Origin: an uncultured virus (IMG/VR IMGVR_UViG_3300038423_000132)
Taxonomy: Duplodnaviria; Heunggongvirae; Uroviricota; Caudoviricetes
Reading direction: 5' to 3' (one strand)
Length of the DNA stretch: 20,000 nt
IMG/VR virus record: IMGVR_UViG_3300038423_000132
The notes beneath the pieces were generated by a model. It made no database searches and had not been told where the DNA came from. It was given only the letters and a program-made list of their open reading frames with translations. Position 1 is the stretch's first letter; each line of letters starts with the position of its first letter. Of the stretch, positions 448 to 19,242 are shown piece after piece. The position numbers and the translations under genes are program-made.

Positions 448-3400
448 TTGGGGTCCGCGACCGTAATAAGTCGCATGTTAGGCATGGTCGATCAGGATGA
501 CAGTAGCAACCTCCCTAGTGGTCTGTCTGCCCAGGTCCGCAACTGCTGCTTTGACTCTATGACTTCTGTTCGCACCCGCGACGGGATCAATACCACGATG
601 CAGGGCGAGCATGAAAGCCCGATCACGGGCCTGATCGGGACGCTCTACACGCCGGAAACCGCTGCGCAGAACTTCCTCCAGGTGCCCACCATCTTCGACA
701 TGACCGGCGCTCTTCAGTACGAGAGCCCAGTCGGCTCGGGCGAGATGGTTCCCTTCCCGCTAAATTCCACGTTCACGCCTCCAGCGAACGCCCACATGAT
801 CTCCGTGCAGACGGGGAACAAAATCTTTGCGGCGTTCTCCGATCTCAACGTGCCGCTGTCAAGCATGGCGGTGATCGATCCCCTAACAAAAGCCGTGTGG
901 CCCTATGGCCTAAAGCCTTTCGGATGGGTTTGGACGGCCAACACCCCGGTTCTCGCGGGAGAGGTGTGCACGCCCACAGCGCCGAGCGGAAACGGCCATA
1001 CCTACCTCTGCACGCAGGCTGGAGTCACGGGGAACAACGAGCCGCTGCCTTGGCCGACCGCCGAAGAGGCGATCGTCAATGACGGGTCCGCAAAGTGGAA
1101 AGAGTACACGGCGGTCATGGCGAACCGGCTTTCCCCGCCTCCCGTGCCAGTGCTTGCGCTGGCCGGCGGTGGGACCATCGCAGCGACCCAGGACGTGTAC
1201 GTCGTCATCACGCTGGTCAACACGATGGGCGAAAGCCTTCCCTCGACGCCGACGTTCATCGAAACTCTGGCGGCTTCCACAACGGTCAACGTGCCATTGC
1301 CAACGCTGACTCTCGGCTCTTTGCCTGGCTGGATGCAGGAACTCGGGGCCAGTTACATCCCGACCGGCTGCAACATCTATGCGGCCATTGTGGCTCACGG
1401 GTCATCGGCACCGCCACTGTCGACCTACCAAAAGGTCAACGTCGGCGTTCAGGCTCTTGGCTCGACTTACGGGATCACCGCCGCGGGAGCAGGCGTCGCC
1501 CCGCCATCGCTCTGCACTGCCCGCGTGGTTCCCGGCCAACTCCCCACGCCAGATGCGCAGGTTCAGATTCAGAGGATTCCGGTCGGCTCGACGGTTGCTC
1601 CGCCGAATGCTCCAGGGCTGGCACTTGCGGCCGGAATAGTCGCCATCCACCGCACCTTTTACGTGGCCCTAACGCTCGTCAATGCGGCTGGAGAAACAAC
1701 TCCGGGGGCCATGGCCAACATCACCACGACTGGCAACAATCAAGGTGCGCAGGTATTTCTCGCAAGCAACTACGGCCCGACCGTCACAGGAGTAAATATC
1801 TACGCGACAGATGTGGCCGAAGGCAGCGCTCCGCCTCTGGTTAGCTCTCTAAACTTTCAAGGAACCTTCGCTCTCGGATCGTCTCCGATCATTACCGGAG
1901 CTGGCGGAGGGGCAAATCCGCCATCTGCCAATACGGCCACTCTTCCAGGAGGACTCTTCCCTGCCGGCCGTGACATCTACGTCGCACAGACTTACAAAAA
2001 CAGCGCGGGCGAGACTACTCTCGGGCCGCTCAATTCAATCATCAATTCCAACGGCGACGATGCCGTGCTCGTCACAATCGCCGTGCCCCAGGACGAGAAC
2101 AACAACGACCTCTACACCATCGCCTCAGTGGGCATCTACGAAGCGGACGTGCCCACTGGAGATCCTGCGCCTCCATCGACAGCCTTCTCCCTCGTCGGCT
2201 ACTACCAGAACACGAATCAGCCGTTCATTCTTGAAACGGCCGCGGGCGCCAACCCTCCCATCGTGAATGGGACTGGACCGGGCGGGGCTATCGTGGCCGA
2301 CACGGCGACTGGCGGGATCAACGGAACGCAGGGCTATCGTTACGCGGCCATCATGTACATGAACCAGAACTACACGGTCTCAGGGTTCACGGCCGCTTCG
2401 GTGATCCAGTACGACGTGGATGAGGATGGTTGGGAACTCGGAATCTTCAAGGTCGCAACTGGACCTGCGTATGTGCTCGGACGTGCAGTTGCGTTCAGCG
2501 TGGCTGATGGATCGAATGCTGGCCCGTTCTGGTGGATCGGCAATGTCAACCTACAGATCCCATCACAGAATTTCGTTTACCCCCAGACCTTTCTTTCGGA
2601 CACGGTAAACCAGAGCTCGACGTTCTTTCTCGACAACGTAACGACCAACGGGACTTTCAACTTTACCGACGAGTATCTGACCAGTTCGAACAACGTCACC
2701 GACAGGCTTGATGTGATCTGGCCGAATCAGGCGGTCCACTGCACCTACTGCCCGAGTGTCGATCGCATCTTCCAGGCTGGAGTTCCAGGCTACTACTCCG
2801 GCTGGTGGGTATCGCTCGCCGGCGATCCCGAGTCCTACTATTCGGACCTGAGTTACATCTCGGTTGGATCAGACGATGGCGAGCGCGCGTGGGGAACGAT
2901 TGAGTATCGCGGCACGGTCTACGGACTCCGCGATAGGTCTGGGTACACCTTCACGGCGAATCCCAATAACCCGCAGACCTGGACAGCAACAAAACGGTGG
3001 AGCGAGCGCGGCCCGTGCGGTCCAAGAGCGTTCGATGCCTGCGGCGACTTCCTGATCTTCGTTCACAGGAGCGGAATCTATCGGTACACCGAGACGACGC
3101 CGGAGTTGGTGACCAAGGAGATTCCCTACTTCTGGAAGACGATCAACTGGCTCGCGGCCAACGTCATTTGCTGCAAGATCGACCAGGAGAAGCACGAAGT
3201 CCACATCCTCGTGCCGGTCGGAAACTCGACGGTGCCCAATCAGGAGGTTGTGCTCAACTATCTCGAGGGCTGGAATCAGCCGGTGCACTTCTCGACCTAC
3301 TCTCAAAAAGAGATCGCCGTTGCCGAGGTGCGGAAGTTCTCGATCAACGATGTGCAGGCTTTTGTTTGCGATCGCATCGAGCGCACGCTGCCAAACCCAA

Positions 3401-3906
3401 CTCCGTTCCCGCAGGGGCAGGCCGGCGTTCCGTTCCTCGATTCGAGCTACTTCACTTCTCAGTTTGTCTACGGATCGAGCGCGGCTGATGGGACGGTGCA
3501 GGCGGTGACGCCTGGAACGTTCTCCGACAATGGGGCGGGAATTGACTGCGTGTACGAAACCGTCTCGCCTGAAACCACGATGGCGCTCTCGAAGATCGAG
3601 GGGTTCACTTTGAACGCCCGAGGCAACGGAACGCTTTATCCCTACTTCCTGGCCGGTCGCACGATGGTGACGGGCAATGTCCCGCTTGGCCCAGTGAATC
3701 CGATGGTCATTCCGTGCAGGCCAATTCAACTCGACATCATGGAGAGCGAGGGGTTGAGCCGCATGGTGCCAAGCCGAATCTCGGAAAGATGGCGGATGAG
3801 GTTCAGCAATGGTAAGGTTCCGGGCGCGTGGTTTGCGCTCAAATGGCTGGCTATCTACTCGATCCCAATGTTCCAGGCCCGCGAGGAGAGTGAGTTAGGT
3901 GGCTGA
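448..3906 (+). CDS. Large tail / DNA-stabilisation (tail nozzle-like) protein with internal repeated beta modules, ~1152 aa
   Basis: Long ORF with strong codon bias. N-terminal 'LGMVDQDDSSNLPSG...RNCCFD...VRTRDG' and a propeller-like C-terminal half (SLAGDPESY, VGSDDGE, GPCGPRAF, LIFVHRSGIYRY) resemble P22 gp10/T7 gp12-type proteins. It lies upstream of the GNAT-like and ejection genes. Start codon uncertain (TTG 448 or ACG 436). Confidence 0.7.
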   Translation: MGSATVISRMLGMVDQDDSSNLPSGLSAQVRNCCFDSMTSVRTRDGINTTMQGEHESPITGLIGTLYTPETAAQNFLQVPTIFDMTGALQYESPVGSGEMVPFPLNSTFTPPANAHMISVQTGNKIFAAFSDLNVPLSSMAVIDPLTKAVWPYGLKPFGWVWTANTPVLAGEVCTPTAPSGNGHTYLCTQAGVTGNNEPLPWPTAEEAIVNDGSAKWKEYTAVMANRLSPPPVPVLALAGGGTIAATQDVYVVITLVNTMGESLPSTPTFIETLAASTTVNVPLPTLTLGSLPGWMQELGASYIPTGCNIYAAIVAHGSSAPPLSTYQKVNVGVQALGSTYGITAAGAGVAPPSLCTARVVPGQLPTPDAQVQIQRIPVGSTVAPPNAPGLALAAGIVAIHRTFYVALTLVNAAGETTPGAMANITTTGNNQGAQVFLASNYGPTVTGVNIYATDVAEGSAPPLVSSLNFQGTFALGSSPIITGAGGGANPPSANTATLPGGLFPAGRDIYVAQTYKNSAGETTLGPLNSIINSNGDDAVLVTIAVPQDENNNDLYTIASVGIYEADVPTGDPAPPSTAFSLVGYYQNTNQPFILETAAGANPPIVNGTGPGGAIVADTATGGINGTQGYRYAAIMYMNQNYTVSGFTAASVIQYDVDEDGWELGIFKVATGPAYVLGRAVAFSVADGSNAGPFWWIGNVNLQIPSQNFVYPQTFLSDTVNQSSTFFLDNVTTNGTFNFTDEYLTSSNNVTDRLDVIWPNQAVHCTYCPSVDRIFQAGVPGYYSGWWVSLAGDPESYYSDLSYISVGSDDGERAWGTIEYRGTVYGLRDRSGYTFTANPNNPQTWTATKRWSERGPCGPRAFDACGDFLIFVHRSGIYRYTETTPELVTKEIPYFWKTINWLAANVICCKIDQEKHEVHILVPVGNSTVPNQEVVLNYLEGWNQPVHFSTYSQKEIAVAEVRKFSINDVQAFVCDRIERTLPNPTPFPQGQAGVPFLDSSYFTSQFVYGSSAADGTVQAVTPGTFSDNGAGIDCVYETVSPETTMALSKIEGFTLNARGNGTLYPYFLAGRTMVTGNVPLGPVNPMVIPCRPIQLDIMESEGLSRMVPSRISERWRMRFSNGKVPGAWFALKWLAIYSIPMFQAREESELGG
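1129..2280 (+). repeat. Three diverged ~115-135 aa protein-level repeats in the tail protein
   Basis: Recurring YVxxTxxNxxGE(S/T)...(N/G)IYxxxVxxG..PP...GxxPP: DVYVVITLVNTMGES, TFYVALTLVNAAGET, DIYVAQTYKNSAGET. Confidence 0.75.
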
Positions 3907-4708
3907 TAACAAGAGCCTGATCGAGTCGGCGTGCAAGGGGAACGTGAACGACCTGCGCACGCTGCTTCTCCAGTTCAACGATCAATTCGAGATCCACAAC
4001 CAGGCCACGGGTACGAACTGGGTCAGCCCGACATCGGGAGTGCAAAAGCCGTCAACAACTCCGCCTCCCGCCGCGACAGCAGCCGCCTCGGGCGCGAATG
4101 GGACCATCGCCATCCAGATCACGAACCCGGCGCAAGCCGCCAAAGCGACGATCTATCACAGGATCAGATATTCCCCCGTGAAGAACTTCTCTCAAGGCGT
4201 GACGGAGTTGCCGCCGTCTCCGGCGAGTACCGTCAGCATTCCCGCTCCCGGGGAGACGCACTTTATTGAACTCAGTTCCAGCTACGACGGATCGACATGG
4301 AACGCTCCCCGGCTCATTCAGCAGACAGCGGTCGCCGCGGGGCTGCAGTCGAGCGCAGCGTGTGAGCCGGCCACGGTTCTGAACAACTGGAATTACGCGA
4401 ACGTCGTCGGTGAGGGATCAGCAGGCGTAGCGCCGGTCATCCGGGTTTACGGTCCCAACGGGCCGTACAGCGGATACACGGCTGGACGGGGAACGGCGCA
4501 GGTTAGCCGGCCATCGGCCACGATTCTCAATTACAGCTACAAGCAGAATCAGATTGTGGCGTTCGACGGCAAGCGGTTTCAACTGGCGTCTACTCTGCCG
4601 GGAGCGATGAAGGATTCATGGGAGCCGGTGGGACAAGCGGGAACACAGGAATCGCCAGGCGGCGGTGGGAACATGGGTGGAAACGGCGGGAGGCTGACCG
4701 CGATATGA
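3899..4708 (+). CDS. Tail-associated virion protein (FN3/Ig-like beta region, Gly-rich C-terminus), 269 aa
   Basis: GTG start after GAGGAG, overlapping the end of the upstream gene. Beta-rich 'IYHRIRYSP...IELSSSYDGSTWN'. Ends GGGGNMGGNGGRLTAI. Confidence 0.55.
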   Translation: MADNKSLIESACKGNVNDLRTLLLQFNDQFEIHNQATGTNWVSPTSGVQKPSTTPPPAATAAASGANGTIAIQITNPAQAAKATIYHRIRYSPVKNFSQGVTELPPSPASTVSIPAPGETHFIELSSSYDGSTWNAPRLIQQTAVAAGLQSSAACEPATVLNNWNYANVVGEGSAGVAPVIRVYGPNGPYSGYTAGRGTAQVSRPSATILNYSYKQNQIVAFDGKRFQLASTLPGAMKDSWEPVGQAGTQESPGGGGNMGGNGGRLTAI

Positions 4709-4977
4709 GTTGGGATCTGAAGCACCACGAGTTCGACCACACGGTGCAGCGGCACTACGCCGTGCTGCACGATCCGGCGACGGGCGCGGAGCACCATCTG
4801 ATTATTCTCACCGGCCACGATGCGTGCCCAACCTGCGGACACGTGCAGCCAAAAACCAACACGGGCGAGATCGACTTCCAGGCGATTCTGAAAGAGGAAC
4901 TGGCTGCGCTCGAAGCGAGCCATGCGCAGAGCGTGGCCTACGCGAAGAAGTTCAACGTTCCAAGGAAGGCGAAATGA
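4705..4977 (+). CDS. Small His-rich protein with CPTCG motif, 90 aa (MSWDLKHHEF...)
   Basis: ATGA overlap with the upstream stop (4705-4708), GGGAGG upstream, and ATGA overlap with the downstream gene. The true start is internal to listed ORF 4618..4977. Confidence 0.7.
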   Translation: MSWDLKHHEFDHTVQRHYAVLHDPATGAEHHLIILTGHDACPTCGHVQPKTNTGEIDFQAILKEELAALEASHAQSVAYAKKFNVPRKAK

Positions 4978-5423
4978 GCAAGACCATCCTCCGGCTGGCC
5001 GAACCGCGCGACATGCCAGCGTTGCTGCACAAGCTGGCCGAGCAGAACCTCCGCGACAAGACGCGCTACCCGATGCCCGAGATATTCGACGAGGACGGTC
5101 GGCAGGCCGACAACGTGCCACTGGCCTATGTGATTGAGCATTGCGGAGAGGTTCTTGGGGGCACGACATTCGAGTCGAAGGGGCTCGAAATGATGTTGAT
5201 CGGGATCGATCCTCGCGTAACAGCGACGATCGCGCGTGAGTCGCCCGGCATTCTCTTCACATTGAAGGCCATGGGCTTCAACTGGATTCGCTGTTTGGTC
5301 ACACGCTCGATTCTCAAAGCTGGCCGCCGAAAGGCCAAGGCCAACCCCGTAAGTGCCGCGATGAAAGCAGCAGGGTTCAGGCGCGACGATACACGATTCG
5401 CCAGTTTCTTCAGGGAGGTGTAA
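4974..5423 (+). CDS. GNAT-fold (acetyltransferase-like) phage protein, 149 aa (MSKTILRLAEPRD...)
   Basis: ATGA coupling at 4974. 'ILRLAEPRDMPALL', 'YVIEHCGEVLGG' and '..MKAAGFRR' follow the GNAT pattern. Position between tail and ejection genes matches T7 gp13/P22 gp14. Confidence 0.6.
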   Translation: MSKTILRLAEPRDMPALLHKLAEQNLRDKTRYPMPEIFDEDGRQADNVPLAYVIEHCGEVLGGTTFESKGLEMMLIGIDPRVTATIARESPGILFTLKAMGFNWIRCLVTRSILKAGRRKAKANPVSAAMKAAGFRRDDTRFASFFREV

Positions 5424-5424
5424 G

Positions 5425-5997
5425 TTGTCGAGAGCCCAGGAATCTCAAGTCGAAGGCACGGCCACAAATCAGAACGCGGGCTATTACAACGATGCCCAAA
5501 ACTCCTATGCCGCTGCCCAGGGTGACGTCGAGGACTACAAGGACCAGCTCGCTAAGTACAAGGCGAGCAACCCCTACGTCCAGGGCGGCCAGTTCCAGAC
5601 CACAACAAATCAGATGCTGGCAGACACGGCGGACGCCGGCGCGCGCGCGGCCGGAGAGCGGCTGCAGAGTCAAGCCCTACGCACCGGGCAGAACAGCGCG
5701 GGCAGTGTAGCAGCGACCGAGCAGATGGAGCAGCAGGGCACGCGGACGCTATCGGCCGATGAGGCCAGAGCCAACCAGGAGCGGATCGTGGCTGGCGCGG
5801 GATACGGCCGGAACGTGCTTCAGGCCACACAGGCACCAGCAGAGATGGAATCCCGGCTCGCCGGGCAGCAGGCCGAAGCCGCTGGAGGCGTGCTGAACAC
5901 TGCACAGAAGGCCGGCGAAACGCCGTCTTGGTGGGATCAGTTTGGAGATGAAGCCGCGAAGGGGTTCGGACAAATGGTATTCGGACCGAAGGGATAG
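5425..5997 (+). CDS. Putative DNA-transfer / ejection (internal virion) protein, 190 aa
   Basis: TTG start after GGAGGT. Ala/Gln/Gly-rich helical composition with an amphipathic C-terminus. Synteny with podovirus ejection genes. Confidence 0.6.
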   Translation: MSRAQESQVEGTATNQNAGYYNDAQNSYAAAQGDVEDYKDQLAKYKASNPYVQGGQFQTTTNQMLADTADAGARAAGERLQSQALRTGQNSAGSVAATEQMEQQGTRTLSADEARANQERIVAGAGYGRNVLQATQAPAEMESRLAGQQAEAAGGVLNTAQKAGETPSWWDQFGDEAAKGFGQMVFGPKG

Positions 5998-6003
5998 GGG
6001 AGA

Positions 6004-7335
6004 GTGGCGACGATGGCAGGCGATCCAAGTCAATTTTTATCGGAAGACGAACAGTATGGCGCCATGCTGGGCCGGCTTCTCAACCCTCCCCCGGAGGCTG
6101 AGCAGCAGGTCGCACAGAATACGGCGCCAGCGGCTCCGGTCCAGAGACCTGCGCTCGCTCCCGCACAACCTGTGCCATCACCATCGCCAGCGGTGCCGCC
6201 AAAGCCAGCGACGCCGAACGCTGTCTCTCCGAACACGCCATCGTTCTACCAGCGCGGGCAACAGGGCGCACTGAACATGGCCGACCAGGACGCCCGAACG
6301 GTTACGGCGTTGGAGAACCAGCCGAACGCCGCGACTGAGAATAAGCTGCTCGAAGCGCAACGCGTCGCCCTGGCACAGCCTCTGAATCCTCAAGACCAAG
6401 GCTATCGCCCCGGAATCGGAACCAGAATCGCACGCGGACTGGCCGCGGCCCGCAAGGGTGGTATCGCCGGGGCCATTGACCCAACCGCAGTAGGAGCAAC
6501 CGCTTACGGCGCACCCAACCGCCAATTCGACATCGACACCGCGCGCCGGCAAGCGCAGGCGACCGTCCTTCAGTCCGAAGAGGACCGCAACATCGCCAAC
6601 GAGAAGGCAGAAAGCGAGCGGATCAAGGATGTCGGGACGGCGGCCGGCAGGGTTGGAACTGCCTACGGCGGTGTGGCCAGGGACGCCACGGCGCAGCAGA
6701 GCGCTGAGCAAAAGAGCCAATACGAAGGCCAGATCGCCGACCTTCGCCAGCAGCTCGCTAACCAAGGCGGCGTGCCCAAGACCTACGAGCAGGCCGTAAT
6801 CGCCTCGCAGATCGATCCAGACCCGCAGAAGCGGCAGGGATACGCCGCCGCAGCGAAGCAAATCGCCTCCCAGGAAGTCAAGAGGTTCCAGTACGCCAAC
6901 CGGGCGGTTGGAGGCGGCGAAGACGATCCCCGGCGCCAGCCGCTCATCGACGCTGCAACCGCACAGGTTGACAAGCTCAACACTTACGAGTGGGATCCTG
7001 AAGCCCAGAACGGCGCGGGCGGATTTTACGACCCGCACAGCGACGGGACAAAAACATACTCCCCGGCCGAGTTCACGGCGATGAAGAACGCGATCGCTAC
7101 AAAGCTGGACGCGCAGCTTACCCAAAAGAAGATGCGCCCGCTCGGCGTCCGGTTTACCGTCGCGGCGACGACTCCCGGCGGCGCACCCGCCGCGGCACAG
7201 CCAGGCGCGCCAGCCGCTCCCGCGCAGACTGCGCCATCCGCCACGACGGTTACACAGGGCCAGGTCTACAAGGGATACAAGTACCTCGGCGGCGATAGGG
7301 CGAACCCGAAAAGCTGGCAGCAGGTCCAGCAGTAA
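6004..7335 (+). CDS. Putative ejection (internal virion) protein, 443 aa
   Basis: Ala/Gln/Pro-rich with coiled-coil segments. C-terminal 'GQVYKGYKYLGGDRANPKSWQQV' is a motif type I recognise from podophage internal proteins. TAATG coupling to the next gene. Start may be GTG 6004 or ATG 6013. Confidence 0.6.
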   Translation: MATMAGDPSQFLSEDEQYGAMLGRLLNPPPEAEQQVAQNTAPAAPVQRPALAPAQPVPSPSPAVPPKPATPNAVSPNTPSFYQRGQQGALNMADQDARTVTALENQPNAATENKLLEAQRVALAQPLNPQDQGYRPGIGTRIARGLAAARKGGIAGAIDPTAVGATAYGAPNRQFDIDTARRQAQATVLQSEEDRNIANEKAESERIKDVGTAAGRVGTAYGGVARDATAQQSAEQKSQYEGQIADLRQQLANQGGVPKTYEQAVIASQIDPDPQKRQGYAAAAKQIASQEVKRFQYANRAVGGGEDDPRRQPLIDAATAQVDKLNTYEWDPEAQNGAGGFYDPHSDGTKTYSPAEFTAMKNAIATKLDAQLTQKKMRPLGVRFTVAATTPGGAPAAAQPGAPAAPAQTAPSATTVTQGQVYKGYKYLGGDRANPKSWQQVQQ

Positions 7336-10300
7336 TGGGCAGCGCAGCGGTCCAACTCGCCCCGTGGGAAGAGGCGGCGCAGCAGACCCCTCCGTGGGAA
7401 GAGGCTGCACAGGCGCAGACCAAAGCCGCGCCATCTCCCTACCCTCCCGGCACTCCCCCTGCAGCCCAACCATTTAGCGACCAGGACGCCGCGCGGTTCA
7501 CGCGGCCAGCCGGAACATCTGTTCCTCCAACCTTTTACAACAGAACTCCAAATACACCTAGCACGCAAAGTGCTGCACAGCCTCCATCCCCTCCCGGATT
7601 CTGGTCTTCGGTCGTTAAACCTGCCGCATCTTCGTTCGCGCGCGCTGTTGGTTTGCCTGGCTCCGTCGAAGAAGCTGCGCAACAGCAGGAGCAGCGACAG
7701 GCTGAGTTGCGCGCCCATCCCGTAAAAGGCACCATCGAGGCTCTCGCCGGTCCCCCTGGACAATTTGCGGAGGGGCTGTACGCGGGCGCAAAGCGCATCA
7801 CCGGCGAGCTGAAAGAGGGAGGCGAGGCGCTCGCAGAGGGCCAGCCTGGCTTCGCGGCGGTCCATGCGGTCCAGGCGATCCCATTCGTCGGTGCGGGGAT
7901 CCAGACCGGCGTTCAGCAACTCGGGCCGAACGAGCTGATAAACCCAGCGGAAGTTGGCACGGTCCTTGGCACAGCCGCCCAGGTTGCCCCCATGCTTTTG
8001 GGCGGAGGCGGTGAAGCCCGTCCAAAACTCAACCTCGGCGTTTACACCCCTCACGAGCCTCCGATGCTCCCGCTTCCCCCGGCAGAGCCTGAGTACGTGG
8101 GCGAGCCGGAAGCCCCTCCGCAGCCAGCAGGCATCCCTGACGCCGAGGTGACGCCGTGGGAGGAGGCTAAGCAGGCGCAACTGCCGGCCACGACATCGGC
8201 CGGACTCCGCCCGCCGCCGCCCGTCAACCGCGCCGAGGCCGTCGAGCGCACGACGCCGCCTCCGCAGTTCGCGCCGCGGCCAGCGCCGACCGCCGCTCGG
8301 GGAATGATCGTCGACCAGCAGGGGAATGTGCTCCCGGTGCGCCCCGGTCTGCCGCCGCCGGTTGAGACGGCCGGCCGGAAGACGCCGATCATCGCCAAGC
8401 CTGTCCCGCCGACCGTCCAGCCCGGGCCCGTCGCTCCAAGGTTGGCCACGCCCGCTGTGATGGCACCAGCGCCCGCGCAGGCTGTCCCTGTACAGGCCGC
8501 GCCCTCCCCGGCAGGCCAACCCACCATCCTGCAGCCGAACGCCCCACAGGGCCAGCCAGAGGCCCAGCGGCCTGTGGTTCAGGCAAGCACCGAACCGGCC
8601 GAGATCCGGCAATCGGCCGCGGAGCAGAAGCCGGTCCTCAAAGACATGGCCGAGACCGCCGTCGAGGGGATCCCCGGCGCCAAGGTCGAGGGGATGCGGG
8701 TCAAGGAGCCAGAGGCCGTCGAGAACAAGGAGGACCGCGGCAAGCCACCGGAGACCATCGTTGACCACCTCGGGGCTCGAGTCTCGGCTCCCACGCCAGA
8801 GGCGGTTGAGCAGATCAGGCAGAACATCGAGAGCCAGCTTCCGGTTCGAAGTGCCGACAAGATCGATTCGAACGGCGTGAATGCCGACCAATACGCCGTG
8901 CAGACCGGGATGCCGGGAGAGCCGAACCAGCAGTCTGAACTCCAGGTTGTGACCGCGCCGGTCGCCGAGGCCATGAAGGCCACGGACGACCTGTACGACC
9001 AGCAGAAGAAGGCGCTGGCGGCCGGGGACCAAGCCAAGGCCGATGAACTGGGCGCGCAGATCGCCGCCAAGATGCAGGACGCCCAACAGCCGGAGCTCCA
9101 GGGCCGCGCCGTGCTGGCCGAGTCGCCGGAGCAGACGCAGCTTGGCAACCCACCGCCCAAGGCGGGCGATACCGTCGCCTACCAGACCAACGGCGGGAAG
9201 ACGCGGAACGCGAAGGTCGTCCGGGTCGACGGCCAGGACGCCTACCTGCGCGACGGGTACGCGACGGTCAAGAAGCCGATCGCAAGCCTGAAACCGGCAG
9301 GCGCGCCCGCCGCCGCGCCAGTGCCGCAACCCGCCGCACCCGCGCCAGCAAAGGCCGCGCCCGTTGCGCGCGCCGCCGCCGCGCCGCCGCCGCCCGTCCA
9401 GCAGGGCCAGCCAGCGCCCGGCACGCCCCGCCCGGTTGGAGAGCCGATCCGGGCCCGCATCGATCAGATCAAGGACCTTGAGGCCAAGGGCCAGAAAGTC
9501 GTCATCTTCTCTGCCGAGGCCGACAACCCGGCGGTCAAAGAGGCTTTGACCAAGGCAGGTCTGGGCAACCTGCCGGTGACGAATATCAAGGGGCCGGACT
9601 TCGGCGCGCTGCTCGACAACGATGTAAACGTGGAGCGGAACGGGACCGGGCCGATGACGATTCCGCCCGTGGTGCCCGGAAAGTCTCTCTACGTCGATTT
9701 CGACGGAACGCTGTTCATGGAGCCGGGAGAGAGAACAGGAGCGCAAGCCAATGCCATTGAACCTCGGAACGGCGGCCAGCCATCAGGCCCTTCAGAAGCA
9801 AGTGGTGGTGGGGAGAAAATCAATGCCAATGAAATCGCAGGCAATGCGCCGCGCGCTGTGGGCCAAGGACCCCAAGGTGGCGCAGGAGTTCGAGAACGAG
9901 ACACCGAAGGGCGCGGTACTGCCGGAGCGATTGCACCCGCCGTCGAAGAAAAGCCACTGGGTCAGCCGGGCGGTGGGGAGAAACCGGAAAAAGTAACGAC
10001 CACCAAATACAAGTACGGCAACACCCAGGCCGACATCCCGCGCGGCTCGGAAGCCGGGAAAGCGCTCGCGGCTGCACGCGCCAAGATCGCCCCGGATGAC
10101 CTGATGCCTACCAGCAACACATCGGATGGCGGAGGTCTCGAAGAAGATTCCCATGTGACCGTCCGGTACGGGATTGACAGCGACGACACGAGCGGCATTC
10201 GGACGCATCTTGAGAAGCAGACACCGTTCGAGGCATCTCTGGGCAAGGTCACATCGTTTCCGCCGAGCGAACATTCGGACGGAGCAGCACCGATTGTCGT

Positions 10301-13250
10301 GGCAGTCGAGTCTCCCGAACTCCGTAAGTTGGAGAAAGAACTCGACAAGCACGGCGCATTTGTTGAGCGTAGCTTCCCCGAGTACAAGCCCCATGCGACT
10401 CTCGCCTACGTGAAACCGGAGGCGGCCCAGAAATATGTGGGGATGCCCGGAACTGAGGGCAAGAAGTTCACGGTCAACAGCATCTCGATCACGGATAAGA
10501 ACGGCGATTCTGTCTCGGTCCCGCTCAAAGGCAAGCACGCCCCCGCCTTCTACAGACCCAAGCCCGCGCCCGCTCCGGTAGAGAAGCCAGCCGCGCCGGT
10601 CAAGACGGAAGCGGATGCCGTCGCGCCGGGAACTGCGCCGCCGACTGAGTTGGAGAACCTGGCCTCCGCCGAGCAGGCCGCCAAGGAGCCAAAGGAAACG
10701 CCGTCCGCTCTCGGCTCGACGACCTACGCTGGCGGTTTCCTCGATCCCGAACTCTTCAAGACGCTCTTCCCCGACCTGGCTGAGCGATTCAAGAACTGGG
10801 CCACAGACGAGATCACTCCCGGCGACACGCAGCGCGAGATGATGCGCGAGACCCGCGGCGAGCGTGACCGGCAGGTTGCTGCAATCGCCAAGAAGCTCCA
10901 GCCGTCGCGGAACTCATGGACGTTCCGCCCGCGCTCCGACTCCACCAAGTTCTTCAATGCTGTCGAGAGCGGGGATCTTTCCTCCCTCGATCCCAAAGAC
11001 CGCGCGCTGGCCCAACTGTTCAAGGGTGGATTCGAGCCGCTCATCAAGGAGATTCAGGAGCTAAAGCCCCAAGTCCTGCAATCCCTGATCGAGAACTACT
11101 TCCCGCACATCTGGGAGCAGCCATCGATGGCCGCGAAGACCCTCCGTGCGGTCATGTCCGGGCGCCGCCCGTTCGCCGGATCCGGTTCATTCCTCAAGCA
11201 GCGTACCATTCCCACCATTCAGGACGGCCTCGACATGGGCCTCAAGCCAGTGTCGTGGAATCCTGTCGATCTGTTCCTGCGCAAGTATTCGGAGATGAGC
11301 CAGTTCCTGATGGGACACAAGACGCTGGAGATGATGAAAGAGGCCGGGACCGCAAAGCAGGTTATGGTTGGCAAGAAAGCTCCAGACGGATGGCGGCAGT
11401 TGGACGACAGGATCAGTACGATATTCAGCTACGATGATGACGACCATCTCTTCATTCGCGGCCATTACTACGCCCCTCCCGATGTAGCCAAGGTCTTCAA
11501 CAACTTTGTCTCCCGTGGTCTCGCCGGCCGCTCCGCGCTCTACGATGTGCTGCGCTGGACGAACAACAACCTCAACTCTCTGCAGTTGGGCATCTCCGCG
11601 TTCCACGCCTCGACCACGGCGGTCAACGCCGCAACCAGTGAAGTCGCTCTGGGAATCCAGAAACTGAGCGAGGGGAAACCCCTCGAGGCGGCAGGTCACA
11701 TCATCTCCGGGGCGACTGTAGCTCCCAGCGTAATCCGCACAATGGTCAACGGCTCGCGGATGATGAACGAATATCTCAGCCCTGGCAGCTATCGAAAGTT
11801 CGCGGCAGAAGCGTCTGCTGTTGCCGAGGCGGGCGGCAGGGCCAAGATGGATGTGGTTCCCATGACCGCCTTCCGCAAGACTGTGAACGCATTCAGGAAC
11901 GGCGCAGTGGCAGAGGGGCTGCTCTCCCTCCCAGGCACGGTACTCCAGACTACCATCGCTCCGGTCATGGACTACATGGTGCCCCGTGTGAAACTTGGAG
12001 CCTTCTACGACATGGCCCACGACATTCTGGATGAGGCTGCCGAGCACAACTGGGATGAGGAGGCGACGCGCCGGAAGATGCAGCGGGCGTGGGACTCGGT
12101 AGACAACCGCTTTGGCCAACTGGTCTACGACAACCTCTTCTGGCATCGCGCTCTTCAGGACACCCTCATGCTGGCCAGCCGGTCAGTAGGATGGAACTTT
12201 GGCGACATACGCGAATTGGGCGGAGGCATCAAGGATATAGGGCAGCAAGCTGCAGGCGTCTTTCAAGGGAAAATGCCGGAGGTTACTCCCAGGATGGCCT
12301 TCGCTTTTGCGCTGCCGCTGGTCACGGGCCTGATTGGCGGAGTGCTGACCTATCTCTGGACCGGCCACAAGCCGGATACGTGGAAGGACTACTTCTACCC
12401 GAAGCGGCAGGATGGAACGCGAGTCTCGATCCCCGGTTACATGAAGGATGTCATAGGCTTTGCGCAGCATCCTATCGGCACAGTGACCAACAAGATGAGC
12501 CCGCTGCTTGAGATGACGGCCGAGGCGATCAACAACCGCGACTTCTACGGCACTGAGATCCGGCACACGGATGACCCCTATGTGAAGCAACTCCTTCAAG
12601 TCTCTCGGTGGGCGGCGGGACAGACCGAACCCTTTGCTATCTCCGGCGGTCAGAAACTGCTGGCCAAAGAGGGGGAGGATACCACGTTCCGGTGGGCGCA
12701 TCCCGTCGAGTCGGTAGAGCGCATTGCCGGCGCGGCCGTCAGACACCCCGGCGATCTTGCGCTTGGTCAACTCGGGTTCCAGCCGGCACCGGCCTTCATA
12801 CAAAACTCGAAGGCACTCAACATGGCCCGCGAGTATGGACAGGCTAATCGGCCATCGGGAACAAAGACGCAGGCAGAGGCTGAGAAGTCCCAGGCCATGC
12901 ACACGATCGAGGATATGTATCGGGCGAAGCAAGTCAACCAATCGGTGATCGACGAGTACAAGAGATCTGGGGTAGTCAACGAAAACGATCTTGTGCGCGC
13001 AAGATTCTATGCTCGCACCGATCCATTGGTGGCAGCCGTGCGCTCTCTGCATTCCGACCAGGCGCTCAACGTGTACCTGGCGGCCACGCCAGCAGAACAG
13101 AAGACGCTGCGGCCATTGATCGAATTGAAGAATCGGGAGATACCAAAGGACACCCCCACCGATCAGCAGCAGCAACTCAAGGATGCCTACCGCAAGGCCC
13201 TGCATCCGCAACCGAAGTTTACGGGACCGAGCACCGGACCCGCCGCGTAG
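7335..13250 (+). CDS. Giant polyvalent ejection-type protein (RelA/SpoT-like, SH3-like, permuted HAD-like, 2H phosphoesterase and LPD38-like C-terminal regions), 1971 aa
   Basis: Uninterrupted 5.9-kb ORF, third and largest of the ejection-type genes. Motifs: RVK..DHLGARV..ELQVVT; GEPI..VVIFSA..VTNIK..VDFDGTL; HVT/HAT pair; C-terminal 'SPLLEMTAEAINNRDFYGTEI'. Confidence 0.8.
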   Translation: MGSAAVQLAPWEEAAQQTPPWEEAAQAQTKAAPSPYPPGTPPAAQPFSDQDAARFTRPAGTSVPPTFYNRTPNTPSTQSAAQPPSPPGFWSSVVKPAASSFARAVGLPGSVEEAAQQQEQRQAELRAHPVKGTIEALAGPPGQFAEGLYAGAKRITGELKEGGEALAEGQPGFAAVHAVQAIPFVGAGIQTGVQQLGPNELINPAEVGTVLGTAAQVAPMLLGGGGEARPKLNLGVYTPHEPPMLPLPPAEPEYVGEPEAPPQPAGIPDAEVTPWEEAKQAQLPATTSAGLRPPPPVNRAEAVERTTPPPQFAPRPAPTAARGMIVDQQGNVLPVRPGLPPPVETAGRKTPIIAKPVPPTVQPGPVAPRLATPAVMAPAPAQAVPVQAAPSPAGQPTILQPNAPQGQPEAQRPVVQASTEPAEIRQSAAEQKPVLKDMAETAVEGIPGAKVEGMRVKEPEAVENKEDRGKPPETIVDHLGARVSAPTPEAVEQIRQNIESQLPVRSADKIDSNGVNADQYAVQTGMPGEPNQQSELQVVTAPVAEAMKATDDLYDQQKKALAAGDQAKADELGAQIAAKMQDAQQPELQGRAVLAESPEQTQLGNPPPKAGDTVAYQTNGGKTRNAKVVRVDGQDAYLRDGYATVKKPIASLKPAGAPAAAPVPQPAAPAPAKAAPVARAAAAPPPPVQQGQPAPGTPRPVGEPIRARIDQIKDLEAKGQKVVIFSAEADNPAVKEALTKAGLGNLPVTNIKGPDFGALLDNDVNVERNGTGPMTIPPVVPGKSLYVDFDGTLFMEPGERTGAQANAIEPRNGGQPSGPSEASGGGEKINANEIAGNAPRAVGQGPQGGAGVRERDTEGRGTAGAIAPAVEEKPLGQPGGGEKPEKVTTTKYKYGNTQADIPRGSEAGKALAAARAKIAPDDLMPTSNTSDGGGLEEDSHVTVRYGIDSDDTSGIRTHLEKQTPFEASLGKVTSFPPSEHSDGAAPIVVAVESPELRKLEKELDKHGAFVERSFPEYKPHATLAYVKPEAAQKYVGMPGTEGKKFTVNSISITDKNGDSVSVPLKGKHAPAFYRPKPAPAPVEKPAAPVKTEADAVAPGTAPPTELENLASAEQAAKEPKETPSALGSTTYAGGFLDPELFKTLFPDLAERFKNWATDEITPGDTQREMMRETRGERDRQVAAIAKKLQPSRNSWTFRPRSDSTKFFNAVESGDLSSLDPKDRALAQLFKGGFEPLIKEIQELKPQVLQSLIENYFPHIWEQPSMAAKTLRAVMSGRRPFAGSGSFLKQRTIPTIQDGLDMGLKPVSWNPVDLFLRKYSEMSQFLMGHKTLEMMKEAGTAKQVMVGKKAPDGWRQLDDRISTIFSYDDDDHLFIRGHYYAPPDVAKVFNNFVSRGLAGRSALYDVLRWTNNNLNSLQLGISAFHASTTAVNAATSEVALGIQKLSEGKPLEAAGHIISGATVAPSVIRTMVNGSRMMNEYLSPGSYRKFAAEASAVAEAGGRAKMDVVPMTAFRKTVNAFRNGAVAEGLLSLPGTVLQTTIAPVMDYMVPRVKLGAFYDMAHDILDEAAEHNWDEEATRRKMQRAWDSVDNRFGQLVYDNLFWHRALQDTLMLASRSVGWNFGDIRELGGGIKDIGQQAAGVFQGKMPEVTPRMAFAFALPLVTGLIGGVLTYLWTGHKPDTWKDYFYPKRQDGTRVSIPGYMKDVIGFAQHPIGTVTNKMSPLLEMTAEAINNRDFYGTEIRHTDDPYVKQLLQVSRWAAGQTEPFAISGGQKLLAKEGEDTTFRWAHPVESVERIAGAAVRHPGDLALGQLGFQPAPAFIQNSKALNMAREYGQANRPSGTKTQAEAEKSQAMHTIEDMYRAKQVNQSVIDEYKRSGVVNENDLVRARFYARTDPLVAAVRSLHSDQALNVYLAATPAEQKTLRPLIELKNREIPKDTPTDQQQQLKDAYRKALHPQPKFTGPSTGPAA
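9823..9996 (+). CDS. Nested small basic protein, 57 aa (MPMKSQAMRRALWAKDPKVAQEFENETPKGAVLPERL...), in the +1 frame inside the giant gene
   Basis: GGAG (9812-9815) sits 7 nt before ATG 9823. By my count 48 of 57 codons end in G/C, versus about half in the host frame over the same bases. Resembles small phage 'MPFKSxAQRR...TPKGKxLP' proteins. Confidence 0.7.
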   Translation: MPMKSQAMRRALWAKDPKVAQEFENETPKGAVLPERLHPPSKKSHWVSRAVGRNRKK

Positions 13251-13264: not shown

Positions 13265-13879
13265 ATGCCGAACGGACGCAAGCCCGGGTGGAGGCCGCCG
13301 CCCGAACCGAAGAAGGAACGCCGGCCGCGTATGAGCCTTGAGCAGCGACGTGTACTCCGTGCCGAGAGAAAGGCTGCGCAGGAGCCTGGGTACATCCCTG
13401 TGCCCCCCGAGAAGCCCCACGTACCGAAGATCATGGACCCCGATCCCAACATCTTCCCACCCAAACTGCGGCGCGTGCTGCAGTATTACCTCGACACCTG
13501 GCCCCGCGACCTCGACAAAGCAGCAAGGGCAGCGTGGATGCTGCCAGATGAATTCAGGGAGCATCTGAAGTCGCCGGGCGTGAAAGAGTATCTGCGGCGG
13601 GAAGAAGAGAAGATCGACGAGAAAGCAGCCGATCGGAGGGCAGAGGCTCGCGTACTCACTGAAGATCATCTCGACGCGATGACGGTTGGCATCCTCGAAA
13701 ACCCGACCATTCCTCCAGCGCAGAAGGTGCGCATGATCGAAGTTGGCTACAGGCGGTTTGGTATGCTGAAGGACCGCGTTGAAGCGACGGGCGCAGGCGG
13801 TGCTCCGCTGGCATTCGAGCTAATCAGGATCGGCCAGAAAAAGGAACACGATGGCGACTCTGGCGATTCCTCTATTTAA
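13265..13879 (+). CDS. terS: Terminase small subunit
   Basis: AGGAGG RBS. Directly upstream of and overlapping TerL. C-terminal 'IEVGYRRFGMLKDRVEATGAGGAPL' matches the TerS 'LELLGKHLGMFxDRVExTGxxGGP' pattern. Confidence 0.75.
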   Translation: MPNGRKPGWRPPPEPKKERRPRMSLEQRRVLRAERKAAQEPGYIPVPPEKPHVPKIMDPDPNIFPPKLRRVLQYYLDTWPRDLDKAARAAWMLPDEFREHLKSPGVKEYLRREEEKIDEKAADRRAEARVLTEDHLDAMTVGILENPTIPPAQKVRMIEVGYRRFGMLKDRVEATGAGGAPLAFELIRIGQKKEHDGDSGDSSI

Positions 13880-15533
13880 TCCAAAGATAGAACTCCAGCC
13901 TAAACAGGGAGAGGTCTTCGATCTTGTCGAGGGCAATGAATCCACCTGGATTGGTGCTGGCGGAGGACGCGGGGGCGCTAAAAGCCGTTGCATCCAGTCT
14001 GTGATGCTCGCACGGCGGCTCCAGTTTCCGGCCACCATCGGCGCAATCGTAATGCGCAACTCCGACCAGGTGCGCAAGTACCACGAGGAGCGGATGCTAG
14101 CGGCGTGGCCGCAGCTTGAGCGGTGCTACGTCAGCACTAAACGCAAGATCGTTCTTCCCTTCCGCGAAGGTCTTCCCTCTGAGATTCACTTTCTCTACGC
14201 TGAAACCCTAAAGGATGTGATCCGTGTCTTTCGCTCCGCCAATTACTTCGATATTGGCATCGACCAGGCCGAGCAATTTGCCGAAGAAGAGCTCAGAGAG
14301 ATAAAGCAGGCCGCTCGGTGGCCAGACGTGCCAGAAGGAACATGCAAGTTGATCGTCGGTTTCAATATGGGCGGCGTGAGCATCGGCTTTTTCCGTAAGG
14401 TCTTTCACGACTTAGAATACCTCCCTAACGAAAATCCCAAACGGTACGCCTTCGTTCACTTCCGGCCCTTTGACAATTCACAATGGAGCCTTCCTGCGCT
14501 TCGGGCTGACGGGCTTACAGAGGAAGATTACTACTCGTGGCCAGAGACAAAGCGTCGTGAATACTGTGGGACACGTTCGGACTACGGCAAGGAGCTTCTC
14601 AGCCAGGACCCTGCGCTGGTGCAGCGCGACTTCGACGGCTCATGGGATTCCCTCGAAGGTGCTTTCTTCACGCGCTCGTGGGACCGCAATGCGAGCGTGC
14701 GTGCTCCAGAGGAAATCGATAGCATCATCAAACCATGGTGGGAGCGGTGGCTATCACAGGACTGGGCGCGCGGACACTACTGCGTCACCTATTGGCACGC
14801 GATGGGCGAGATGTCTCCAGAGGAGATCAAGAAGCATCTGGGGTGGGATGTGCGCTTCGCGCTGAAGGTGATCGTCACCTACAGGGAGTACGTGGCCGGC
14901 GGCGAGGCGGCGCCGGACTCCGGAGGCAACCGGGAGTTGGACGAAGAGGACATCGCTCGACAGATAGTCGAACGTACCCCATCGAGCGAACGCGCCAACC
15001 TCTCAGACTTCTTTCTGTCACCGGATGCCTTCGGTAAAAAGTCAAGCAAAAACACGATCGCTCAGACCGAGGGCGAAATCCTCATGGCGAGCGACATGCC
15101 ATATCCCCGGCACGCCGATGACGAGCGCATTACCGGCTGGAGCCTGATGTCGAAGCTCATGTTGGCTACCAAACGCAAGGGCTCGCGGGGAGAGGAGGTT
15201 TGGCTGATGTCGGTTAACTGCGTTGAGTTGGTATCTGCTATTCCACTCCAGATGCGTGACCCGAAGAAGCTGGAGGATGTTCTAAAAACGGATTTGAGCA
15301 CGGCGAAGATCGATCAGGATTGTATGGACGCAGCACGCTACGGACTGAAGAGTAAGCTCCAGCCGGGACAAAAGCCCAAGGAAGTTGAGGCCGAGGAGAA
15401 ACTGCGGGTACTGCAGGAGAGCGGTCTCGATGAGCACAGCCTCGGGATTTACAGGATCAGATATTCTCAAGAGGCCCGGGAGCCGGAAGAGCCTGCGCGG
15501 ATGGGTCGCGGCCGGGCAACACGGCGTATTTAG
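13851..15533 (+). CDS. terL: Terminase large subunit
   Basis: Adenine-binding 'LQPKQ', Walker A 'GGGRGGAKS', Walker B-like 'IGIDQAEQF', coupling-like 'FNMGG', 'DNSQW', 'RDFDGSWD', RNase H-type nuclease 'SQDWARGH', 'RITGW' and 'DCMDAARYG'. Confidence 0.92.
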   Translation: MATLAIPLFNPKIELQPKQGEVFDLVEGNESTWIGAGGGRGGAKSRCIQSVMLARRLQFPATIGAIVMRNSDQVRKYHEERMLAAWPQLERCYVSTKRKIVLPFREGLPSEIHFLYAETLKDVIRVFRSANYFDIGIDQAEQFAEEELREIKQAARWPDVPEGTCKLIVGFNMGGVSIGFFRKVFHDLEYLPNENPKRYAFVHFRPFDNSQWSLPALRADGLTEEDYYSWPETKRREYCGTRSDYGKELLSQDPALVQRDFDGSWDSLEGAFFTRSWDRNASVRAPEEIDSIIKPWWERWLSQDWARGHYCVTYWHAMGEMSPEEIKKHLGWDVRFALKVIVTYREYVAGGEAAPDSGGNRELDEEDIARQIVERTPSSERANLSDFFLSPDAFGKKSSKNTIAQTEGEILMASDMPYPRHADDERITGWSLMSKLMLATKRKGSRGEEVWLMSVNCVELVSAIPLQMRDPKKLEDVLKTDLSTAKIDQDCMDAARYGLKSKLQPGQKPKEVEAEEKLRVLQESGLDEHSLGIYRIRYSQEAREPEEPARMGRGRATRRI

Positions 15534-15901: not shown

Positions 15902-16201
15902 CTAATCTTCCATCCCACAGCCCTGCCCGAGTGGCAAGCACTTTCGTATCTGCTCGATCAACATCTTGGTAACGGAGCCATCCCTGTCTTCCGCAATCCA
16001 TTCGGGACGGATGTAGTGCAGGGGACGCTTCAGCAAACCGCAAGAAGTCTCACCGGAGTGGTCCACTTCAAGAGCACGACAGATTTCATCTTCCGGCGAA
16101 TTCATCAACGCCACGCTTGCGTCACAGGGACCGCGACGGCAACATTCCCCGCATCGATTACAGGAAGCGCGGAAGGGCGGCTTCTGAATGATTGCGAACA
16201 T
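15902..16201 (-). CDS. Cysteine-cluster (YkgJ/CxxCxxCC-like) protein
   Basis: 'CNRCGECCRRGPC...CRAL...CGL...GQGCG'. GGTGAGG RBS before ATG 16201. Confidence 0.7.
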   Translation of the reverse strand: MFAIIQKPPFRASCNRCGECCRRGPCDASVALMNSPEDEICRALEVDHSGETSCGLLKRPLHYIRPEWIAEDRDGSVTKMLIEQIRKCLPLGQGCGMED

Positions 16202-16205
16202 CGCC

Positions 16206-16703
16206 TCACCCGCGCCCCGGCTTGCCGTCGGCGGGCGCATTGGCGCGGGCGGCGAGCTTGCGATTGATATGCTCTATAAGCAATTTATCGGCATGTCGCG
16301 TCTGTTGATATGGTTCAAAGGTTTCCAGCGTAAACGGCGCACTCAGCCGCTCGATGGTCTGCTCCGCCACGCGCAGCTTCGCTTCCAGATCCCAGATGCG
16401 CATAGCCGCTTCTTTGCGTTTAACGTAAGGGCCGAAATGTCCCTGCGCTTCTTTGATCTGGCCCGCGATGAGATCATAACTTCGCAAATCCTCGGGTATC
16501 TTCGGCTCGCTCATCGTGCCCACCTGATCTCTGCGATCACGTCGCGGGCCTTGCAGTACGCGCAGCTTCGCTTCCAAGGCGGCGTAATCTTCATACATAC
16601 AATACGGGCCATCCTTCTGCTCATATAAGACGGCGATTGGATTCTCGCCTGCGCTGAATGAATTCTCAATTTTCTTGTTGTATCGTTTTATGTTCATCGT
16701 CAT
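16206..16703 (-). CDS. Hypothetical phage protein with two 'GPY...LEAKLRV' modules (possibly two fused genes)
   Basis: ATGA coupling at 16703. Internal RBS-like AGGTGG plus ATG at 16514. Duplicated motif. Confidence 0.55.
   Translation of the reverse strand: MTMNIKRYNKKIENSFSAGENPIAVLYEQKDGPYCMYEDYAALEAKLRVLQGPRRDRRDQVGTMSEPKIPEDLRSYDLIAGQIKEAQGHFGPYVKRKEAAMRIWDLEAKLRVAEQTIERLSAPFTLETFEPYQQTRHADKLLIEHINRKLAARANAPADGKPGRG
16369..16576. repeat. 19-bp exact direct repeat ACGCGCAGCTTCGCTTCCA (16369-16387 and 16558-16576)
   Basis: Read directly from the sequence; lies within LEAKLRV codons on the minus strand. Confidence 0.85.
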
Positions 16704-19228: not shown

Positions 19229-19242
19229 GGGTCAACCTCCGC

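Follow-up and report, generated by a model that had tools for sequence, protein, structure and literature searches.

A small viral protein gene probably embedded in the +1 frame of a giant polyvalent-type phage gene

Genes that lie entirely within another gene, in its +1 frame, are textbook features of phages, and lambda Rz1 inside Rz is the standard case. Passages in two sources (PMC5295617, PMC6139136) treat the lambda pair as embedded spanin genes. A second arrangement, the ShiLan type, consists of HNH endonuclease genes inserted out of frame in the DNA methylase genes of actinophages, where translation of the insert in the host frame is assumed to give a loop that is tolerated (PMC11855218). 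Two further bodies of work are close to the case described here, namely the account of polyvalent proteins of phages and conjugative elements by Iyer et al. 2017 (PMC5512222) and the discussions of overprinting in viruses contained in PMC8227390 and PMC3494269. The word 'overlap' occurs 0 times in the text of PMC5512222, a small gene within spacers is not mentioned in those of its passages that were searched, and literature searches turned up no account of such a nested gene in polyvalent proteins. Here we describe a candidate nested gene in a 20,000-nucleotide stretch of DNA from an uncultured virus of the class Caudoviricetes (IMG/VR record IMGVR_UViG_3300038423_000132), hereafter called the window. 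This is phage DNA with a G+C content of 61% and genes on the + strand, and the candidate is located inside a giant polyvalent-type open reading frame (ORF).

We consider it highly likely that positions 9751-9996 of the + strand encode a real protein, from a gene that is embedded in the giant ORF at +1. Since the nested reading is the better conserved of the two, a pair of proteins is very probably encoded here. The nested ORF is located wholly within a longer ORF of the same strand in another frame (9751-9996 in 7335-13250), and its two ATG codons, at 9751 and 9823, share a frame that ends with a TAA codon at 9994-9996. A first-pass annotation of the window had proposed that GGAG, 7 nt and ATG 9823 open a 57-aa ORF in the +1 frame and that a second AGGAG and ATG, at 9751, belong to the same frame. 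Both features can be read directly from the sequence, with AGGAG at 9737-9741 and a spacing of 9 nt in the latter case.

The same annotation pointed to a likeness to small phage proteins of the MPFKSxAQRR...ETPKGKxLP type. This likeness proved to be real, as homologue searches with the 57-aa peptide retrieved many relatives. A word-indexed protein search found six called proteins of 45-65 aa that are 69-77% identical to the 57-aa core (expect values, E, of 4e-12 to 1e-7), and phmmer run against 1.84 billion representatives gave 119 matches at E <= 1e-3, nearly all of which carry the motif at or near residue 1. These 119 representatives are mostly 45-100 residues in length, with a few that are longer (up to 532), and two of them (P0050 and P0106), which are unrelated repeat proteins, appear to match by chance. 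Family members are basic, span ~45-60 residues, and share the pattern MP[MFY]KS-AQRR...TPKG-KLPE followed by a Lys/Arg tail. With the N-terminal motif written as MP[MFLY]KS, the window copy falls within the family, and alignment A1 of the small protein and its relatives has 20 invariant columns.

Existing libraries offer little for this family. Searches of Pfam and NCBIfam with the window protein returned no family (Pfam at E <= 1), and Pfam searches with 13 and then 82 family members yielded nothing relevant, including no DUF3008 at E <= 0.05. This last family (PF11450) had been a lead from the ESM Atlas, where it accounts for 15% of one cluster's members (score 0.83), and was rejected given the lack of a Pfam match in the 82 members. 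The nearest ESM Atlas clusters comprise viral hypothetical proteins of 52-59 aa (score 0.93-0.94). The only library family touched is PHROG 1375, of unknown function, which is matched by two of seven close homologues (E 1.5e-4) and by three of 33 longer relatives (~5e-5), with the window protein itself reaching only E 0.16. Against 50,697 GenBank phage records, tblastn with the window peptide gave 13 weak matches (best E 0.5), and a consensus-like relative gave none at E <= 0.01. A scan of genome contigs for the small protein produced four matches, all in metagenome-assembled bins. The record nearest to the window, a 22.7-kb fragment (G001), has the nested copy only. No copy of the nested protein of the window itself came out of the search among called proteins of similar length. 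As judged by these searches, the small-protein family is large, unnamed, exclusively viral in the data seen, and without a Pfam model.

The codon composition of the giant ORF changes over the nested gene. As stated in the first-pass annotation, 48 of the 57 nested codons end in G or C (64 of 81 when counted from 9751), compared with 27 of 58 giant-frame codons in the same span and a fraction of 0.75 in the rest of the giant gene. Over 9765-9944, the G+C contents at codon positions 1, 2 and 3 (GC1/2/3) of the nested frame are 0.67/0.47/0.78, which is the usual pattern of the giant frame elsewhere, and a sliding profile reveals that the pattern moves from the giant to the nested frame between ~9675 and 10034. 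Composition alone is insufficient evidence because a high GC content at third positions of the +1 frame is no rarity in this Ala/Pro/Gly-rich giant gene. The evidential weight is carried instead by the fall in giant-frame GC3 together with the comparative data. This distinction matters for the possibility that the ORF is a chance compositional by-product of a G+C-rich low-complexity spacer. Spurious ORFs abound in high-GC phage DNA, the 20 kb contain 149 ORFs of >= 50 aa, and 72 of 1,915 +1-frame windows of the giant gene equal the nested ORF in reaching >= 48 G/C-ending codons. However, chance would not account for free-standing homologues in phages of 33-45% GC (E 4e-12), for 119 family representatives, or for frame-specific selection (see below). 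The homology searches refute this explanation, and we give it practically no credence.

The nested arrangement recurs. Back-translated patterns retrieved 49 viral loci, in most of which, especially those of low GC, the small ORF is free-standing and neither of the other two forward frames is open across it. In five of the 49 (L001, which is near-identical to the window, L002, L003, L010 and L044) it is nested in an open frame of 1,337-2,795 codons, always at +1. Only the giants of L001, L002 and L003 are similar to that of the window (tblastn, E <= 1e-3), and because those of L010 and L044 have no detectable similarity, the layout also exists in apparently unrelated giants. Overlapping open frames of medium size (196-451 codons) in L012, L016, L028, L036 and L037 may be additional nested cases. 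A screen that started from the 2H phosphoesterase module of the giant protein gave 41 viral loci. In nine of these (L050, L051, L058, L062, L063, L064, L066, L072 and L089), 2H is immediately preceded by an intact +1-frame ORF of the MPxKS type, and in L074 such an ORF is found ~600 nt downstream of the 2H start. The first-pass annotation had proposed to screen other polyvalent genes for the same +1-frame ORF, and after removal of duplicates there are 12 distinct nested instances, the window included, all in giant or 2H-domain genes. It had also reasoned that a lack of homologues of the peptide, together with relatives that have stops in this frame and conserved host-frame residues, would speak against the gene. 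The opposite was found, in that homologues are numerous and the relatives among these 12 instances keep the nested frame open with its start signals. No in-frame version of the small peptide was detected in 109 related giant proteins (best E 0.11).

Initiation signals are a consistent feature of the nested copies. In all 12 instances, the MPxKS start follows a purine-rich motif resembling a Shine-Dalgarno (SD) sequence at a distance of 5-10 nt (L010 has the weakest), and the giant-frame residues around the start signals vary among them. The start codon is ATG in ten copies and GTG in L062 and L089. In eight of the 12, a second in-frame ATG with its own SD precedes the MPxKS core by 22-24 codons; the equivalent of ATG 9751 is preceded by an SD-like motif in L002, L003, L051, L062, L063, L066 and L089. 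The resulting N-terminal extension is also conserved, reading MNSxTAQSSLPIQLQ in nested relatives and MPLNLGTAASHQALQKQ in the window. From the conserved upstream ATG, its SD, and the conserved extension, ATG 9751 is probably the start of a genuine long form. A promoter and terminator scan of 9300-10300 gave no promoter-like site and nothing else of relevance.

These signals also bear on whether the small-protein sequence could be the end of a frameshift product, in which ribosomes slip +1 from the giant frame to yield a truncated N-terminal fragment of the giant protein. The nested frame does lie at +1 relative to the giant frame, its open stretch already begins at 9658 (55 codons ahead of ATG 9823), and internal SD-like motifs are known to stimulate frameshifting in prfB and dnaX. 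Against this, free-standing family members begin the motif at Met1, the start codon of the nested copies is conserved at exactly that place, and an SD spacing of 5-10 nt suits initiation. Moreover, the nested frame is closed six codons (L072) and 17 codons (L044) before the ATG, leaving little room for a shift site, and the giant frame lacks the stop codon that a prfB-type +1 site needs, although a systematic scan for slippery sites was not run. We judge the probability of a frameshift product to be very small.

Substitutions among related loci indicate which of the two frames is constrained. Three independent pairs (the window with L058, L051 with L063, and L066 with L089) were aligned in the giant frame and examined in 20-codon windows. 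The flanks have 108/79/251 differences at positions 1/2/3 of the giant codons, whereas those inside the nested region number 54/28/22, and therefore fall at nested third positions and avoid the wobble position of the giant frame. This phase switch is significant when pooled (chi-square 46, p = 1e-10) and in each pair (p = 0.0017, 7e-6 and 0.0047). In the 2H module, substitutions are at giant-frame third positions. Ratios of nonsynonymous to synonymous substitution rates (dN/dS) were computed by the Nei-Gojobori method from ungapped core codons in four comparisons, giving 0.19, 0.19, 0.10 and 0.13 in the nested frame versus 2.97, 2.64, 8.10 and 1.49 in the giant frame. For the N-terminal extension, nested-frame dS is 0.23-1.76 compared with dN of 0.03-0.18. 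The dN/dS values of overlapping frames are not independent, and the giant-frame values above 1 are thus not positive selection but a by-product of the nested-frame constraint. Together, the phase switch and the frame-specific ratios bear out the earlier proposal, in which constraint acts on the frame of the small gene, and they argue for purifying selection on the embedded frame.

Seen from the giant frame, the nested gene reads as a low-complexity linker, which had likewise been proposed. The translation, a GC3 that drops to 0.47-0.55, and giant-frame dN/dS of 1.5-8.1 agree with this view. The first-pass annotation had further labelled the flanking domains as HAD and 2H, of which only the second label is confirmed. 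The 2H phosphoesterase (Pfam PF13563, 2_5_RNA_ligase2) is the sole confident domain of the giant protein (aa 940-1052, E 8e-9); the module also matches NCBIfam TIGR02258 at E 5.9e-5, which is under that model's cut-off, and an Acb1 Pfam match of the giant protein is likewise under its cut-off. The upstream module has no Pfam match, no match to PDB sequences with E under 0.49, and only a faint similarity to NCBIfam TIGR01662 (HAD-IIIA; E 0.063, ~13 bits versus a cut-off of 44.6). A DxDGT-like motif (DFDGT) is readable in its sequence. This module is collinear and conserved in six relatives (P0130, P0131, P0133, P0147, P0156 and P0159), and the same six align from it through 2H around a variable spacer. 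Because these relatives align across the spacer and both flanks are under giant-frame constraint, the alignments indicate that the host gene is one gene. An assembly frameshift is excluded because contigs from four other runs are identical, with 0 differences over the covered parts of 9000-10500 and one 4,085-nt contig that spans 9329-10500. These four runs show no variant letters, and thus no population variation, over the parts of 9000-10500 that they cover.

The alignments are also pertinent to a reading in which the small gene is genuine but the giant ORF corresponds to two separate proteins, through a cut in the spacer or a split gene, such that the continuous frame serves no purpose of its own and read-through is incidental. 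Split forms do exist in L051, L063 and L066, and a giant frame would be open by default at high nested GC3. Even in these split forms, however, the small ORF is still inside the 2H gene, ~75 codons past its start, and the six relatives named above hold the upstream module and 2H in one frame with the spacer alone between them. In addition, among ~14 distinct free-standing copies from loci with GC of ~0.54 or higher, the (-1) frame that corresponds to the giant frame is closed in ~10 and open in ~4, as compared with nested copies, all 12 of which are open in it by definition. We regard incidental read-through as improbable.

The arrangement we favour, two proteins from one stretch, builds on what the comparisons show (homologues, retained start signals, purifying selection specific to the nested frame, and 12 or more different host genes). 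It suggests the following sequence of events, in which independent initiation, the synthesis of both products, and a role for the small protein are inferred. Ribosomes would start independently on the giant mRNA at the SD-led ATG 9823 to make the 57-aa protein and, probably, in a second independent start at ATG 9751 to make the 81-aa form. Those in the giant frame would pass straight across, yielding the Gly/Ala/Pro/Glu-rich spacer between the upstream module and 2H. The sequence of this spacer would be dictated by the small gene and tolerated because a spacer needs no fold.

Several observations weigh against an active embedded gene. The window copy departs from the consensus at two conserved sites (AQRR to AMRR, and KGKK to KGAV), and the selection tests are thin, with three independent pairs and alignments of 41-53 codons. 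A stop in the giant (-1) frame calls for T at a nested third position, a letter seldom found there when GC3 is high, and the +1 frame is open by default in spacers with few hydrophobic residues. Open frames are thus partly a by-product of composition, and openness by itself is weak evidence. Searches for the nature of the protein were also negative: comparison of its model with the PDB by Foldseek had no match at E <= 0.001 (the best reached E 4.6), none at E <= 1 came from a profile search of PDB sequences, and no clue to function came from Pfam, NCBIfam, the PDB sequence search, or Foldseek. Furthermore, 92 of the 109 related giants have no recognisable shadow of the gene in the giant frame, so that the arrangement is dispensable, and the substitution phases between L052 and L057, which have core-less +1 ORFs at the same site (see below), are flat (20/19/23). 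These last two points are favourable to another explanation, according to which a captured small gene remains in the spacer as an untranslated and slowly decaying relic and the giant protein is the sole product. A relic of this kind would be difficult to reconcile with nested dN/dS of 0.10-0.19 in all four comparisons, with a phase switch in three independent pairs, with the retention of SD and start codon in 12 of 12 copies despite differing giant-frame residues around them, and with the intactness of nested copies that are only 24-37% identical to that of the window. We hold a relic to be highly improbable and prefer the embedded protein-coding gene.

The shadow in the giant frame provides another measure of the distribution of the nested gene. 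A hidden Markov model (HMM) built from 12 shadows recognised a shadow in 17 of the 109 related giants, and replaced a narrow regular expression that had matched 5 of 109. Among HMMs of the small protein itself, a 7-sequence version matched 8 of 42 sources and a broader one 11 of 42. In P0141, P0149, P0177, P0178, P0196 and P0197, the shadow is hundreds of residues before or after the 2H motif. As the position of the shadow relative to 2H varies, the small gene is not tied to the 2H module. There is likewise no 2H homologue in the flanks of free-standing copies. The first-pass annotation had put forward that the small gene, given its place between the two domains, may be a partner or regulator; a partnership with the 2H module is unsupported by its distribution.

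Some relatives carry a different version of the insert. At the same site in L052 (9588-9800; also in L053 and L054) and in L057 (9795-9992) there is a +1-frame ORF of 65-70 codons that keeps the N-terminal extension MQN(N)LG.AA...KQK.AG and the tail KKSHW.S...KKK-stop, with the MPxKS core missing. This ORF may be a decayed or remodelled copy. The core-less ORFs and their flat phases show that a host gene can outlast its nested gene. Other spacers (P0156, L055 and L056) have no +1 ORF before 2H. Separately, the DNA of GAAGAAAAGCCACTGGG (window 9930-9996) is nearly invariant in four divergent loci (the window, L062, L052 and L057). Its translation is KKSHW in the nested and EEKPLG in the giant frame, and the stretch is too short for the constraint to be assigned to either frame or to something else.

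The nested copies form two sequence subtypes, MPMKS...AKDPKVAQEFE..TPKG and MP[YFA]KS...NQSSKG.KLPEKAP. Over the 81-aa alignment, the window core is 52-67% identical to free-standing copies versus 24-37% to the second nested subtype. This greater similarity to free-standing copies suggests that the gene has passed between the free-standing and nested states more than once. The data are compatible with the earlier idea that the nested gene is a trace of how polyvalent proteins absorb neighbouring genes. A broader version of this idea, speculative and in our estimate rather unlikely as a whole, is that the small gene provides polyvalent genes with a portable junction. By conserving DNA among otherwise divergent giants, selection on the nested protein could create a patch of homology for the gain, loss, or swap of modules. 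Many linkers of polyvalent proteins would then be live or decayed shadows, and giants would grow by out-of-frame read-through of small neighbours, which high GC3 makes easy. Hints in this direction are the variable place of the shadow, the unrelated giants of L010 and L044, the core-less remnants, the identity pattern, and an extra module in L002. This 1.79-kb module (L002:6159-7947; weak LPD1) starts exactly after the nested stop codon. Downstream of it, 150 nt are 97% identical to L003 (6151-6300), the corresponding figure upstream is 74%, and ~8 nt align on both sides of the junction. It looks like the result of a recent exchange at the end of the nested gene.

AlphaFold2, given 88 sequences and the 81-aa form, produced a model of the small protein with a mean predicted local distance difference test score (pLDDT) of 75.8. 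The model has helices at residues 30-39 and 41-50 (pLDDT above 90), an extended TPKG-LPE segment, and a basic C-terminal helix. Genomic context offers a modest lead to function. A neighbour in the PHROG category 'head and packaging' (TerL, portal, MuF-like minor head protein, or major head protein) occurs at six of 22 free-standing loci, for which 84 of 101 neighbouring ORFs have no PHROG match at all, and a TerL-like gene is present in the fetched flanks of at least 14 of 49 loci. One longer relative (P0128, 532 aa) combines the MPxKS motif at residue 1 with a C-terminal match to PHROG 220, 'minor head protein and DNA pilot' (E 3e-27); in other longer relatives (111-503 aa) the C-terminal part is without annotation. 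Polyvalent proteins, for their part, are thought to be packaged and injected, as a passage of PMC5512222 has it. From these head and packaging neighbours, the PHROG 220 fusion, and the presumed packaging of polyvalent proteins, we tentatively propose that the small protein might be a nucleic-acid- or head-associated accessory of virion assembly or packaging, a role that is possible but short of likely.

The features of the locus are compiled in Table 1.

Table 1. Coordinates of the nested gene, its signals, and surrounding features in the window
Feature	Position	Strand	Basis or remark
Embedded gene, long form, 81 aa (candidate)	9751..9996	+	ORF in +1 frame of host gene
Embedded gene, short form/core, 57 aa (MPMKS...TPKG..LPE, then basic tail; candidate)	9823..9996	+	Homologous to free-standing small phage proteins
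Shine-Dalgarno-like AGGAG	9737..9741	+	9 nt before ATG 9751
Shine-Dalgarno-like GGGGAG	9810..9815	+	7 nt before ATG 9823; includes GGAG 9812-9815
Giant-frame shadow: Gly/Ala/Pro/Glu-rich low-complexity spacer, aa 806-890	9750..10004	+	Translation; GC3 down to 0.47-0.55
Host gene: 1,971-codon polyvalent-type giant gene	7335..13250	+	ORF list; one frame open throughout
Upstream module of giant protein, conserved, ending ...LYVDFDGTLF	9432..9719	+	HAD-like by motif only
2H phosphoesterase module of giant protein, begins KYKYGNTQADIP	10005..10490	+	PF13563, E 8e-9
Terminase large subunit (TerL) gene	13851..15533	+	PHROG 2, E 2.1e-20

The 109 giant relatives range from 1,084 to 3,450 aa and contain 2H plus GGDEF, RelA/SpoT, ART-PolyVal, ParB, Zeta-toxin or helicase domains. 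By the yardstick of polyvalent proteins, the giant protein of the window has one Pfam domain (2H), multiple disparate domains are seen in its relatives, and TerL is located downstream; a weak LPD1 match was found in the L002 homologue. The database copy of the giant protein (P0129, 1,865 aa) begins 106 codons later than the ORF at 7335, and for this reason the true start of the giant gene is uncertain. These first 106 codons (7335-7652) are Pro/Ala/Thr-rich, with low GC3 (0.43-0.68) and high GC2. Fused and split versions of the polyvalent gene coexist among relatives. In the split forms (L051, L063 and L066), a 2H gene of 673-704 codons follows a separate upstream ORF, which in L063 spans 7272-9608 (778 codons) and ends where the 2H frame opens, followed by the second ORF at 9596-11617.

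The packaging module is directly downstream of the giant gene, and TerL is 3.9 kb downstream of the small ORF. None of 13 other window ORFs (94-1,152 aa; 448-7335, 13265-13879 and 16188-19655) has a PHROG or Pfam match at E <= 1e-3. Since TerL alone is recognisable, the window represents a very poorly characterised phage lineage. DNA that is near-identical to 9000-10500 was detected in seven runs (>= half of sampled words), or five without two possible source samples, and all seven are labelled as peat or wetland metagenomes, with no RNA run among them.

Because gene callers allow one gene per stretch, the annotation of each giant gene with a nested copy omits the small protein. If our interpretation is correct, a conserved "linker" motif in widespread phage counter-defence proteins is the shadow of another gene, which alters how spacers are read in domain analyses. 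The system should also be useful for studying constraint shared between two frames, and the small-protein family, which is large, viral, and often found near packaging genes, is a target for experiments.

The locus shares features with each of the described systems mentioned at the outset, as far as the cited passages portray them. Like lambda Rz1 in Rz, a small same-strand gene is contained wholly inside a larger one in a tailed phage, at +1 and with its own start signals. Unlike Rz and Rz1, which are two subunits of one complex, the embedded gene here is widespread and has many free-standing copies, and the host frame of the window is a low-complexity spacer under relaxed constraint, and a functional link between the two products is not implied. 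The resemblance to the ShiLan type is that a pre-existing gene sits out of frame in a stop-free host gene and is missed by gene callers. Homologues without the insert at the same site, by which ShiLan-type insertions are identified, exist here as well (P0156, L055/L056, L052-54 and L057). However, the ShiLan insert is a selfish homing endonuclease, whereas the window gene has 57-81 codons and resides in a spacer between modules rather than in an enzyme domain. An HNH or other domain was not found in the small protein with Pfam, NCBIfam, or PHROGs, and insertion of a homing endonuclease was rejected on the grounds that there is no nuclease domain and only 57-81 codons.

The host gene, in turn, resembles those described for polyvalent proteins in that its relatives are giant and multi-domain (2H with GGDEF, RelA/SpoT, ART, ParB, or helicase) and located beside packaging genes. 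In that description the spacers are linkers, but here a spacer appears to contain an independently coding small gene. As in overprinting, two proteins would derive from one stretch whose frames are asymmetrically constrained. The direction, however, seems to be the reverse of classical overprinting, in which a new frame is born in an old gene, as here the short frame is apparently the old one and the giant spacer was laid over it. What is new in this locus, to judge from the comparisons presented, is the combination of an old and widespread small-protein family in embedded form, a relaxed host spacer, and recurrence across giant polyvalent genes.

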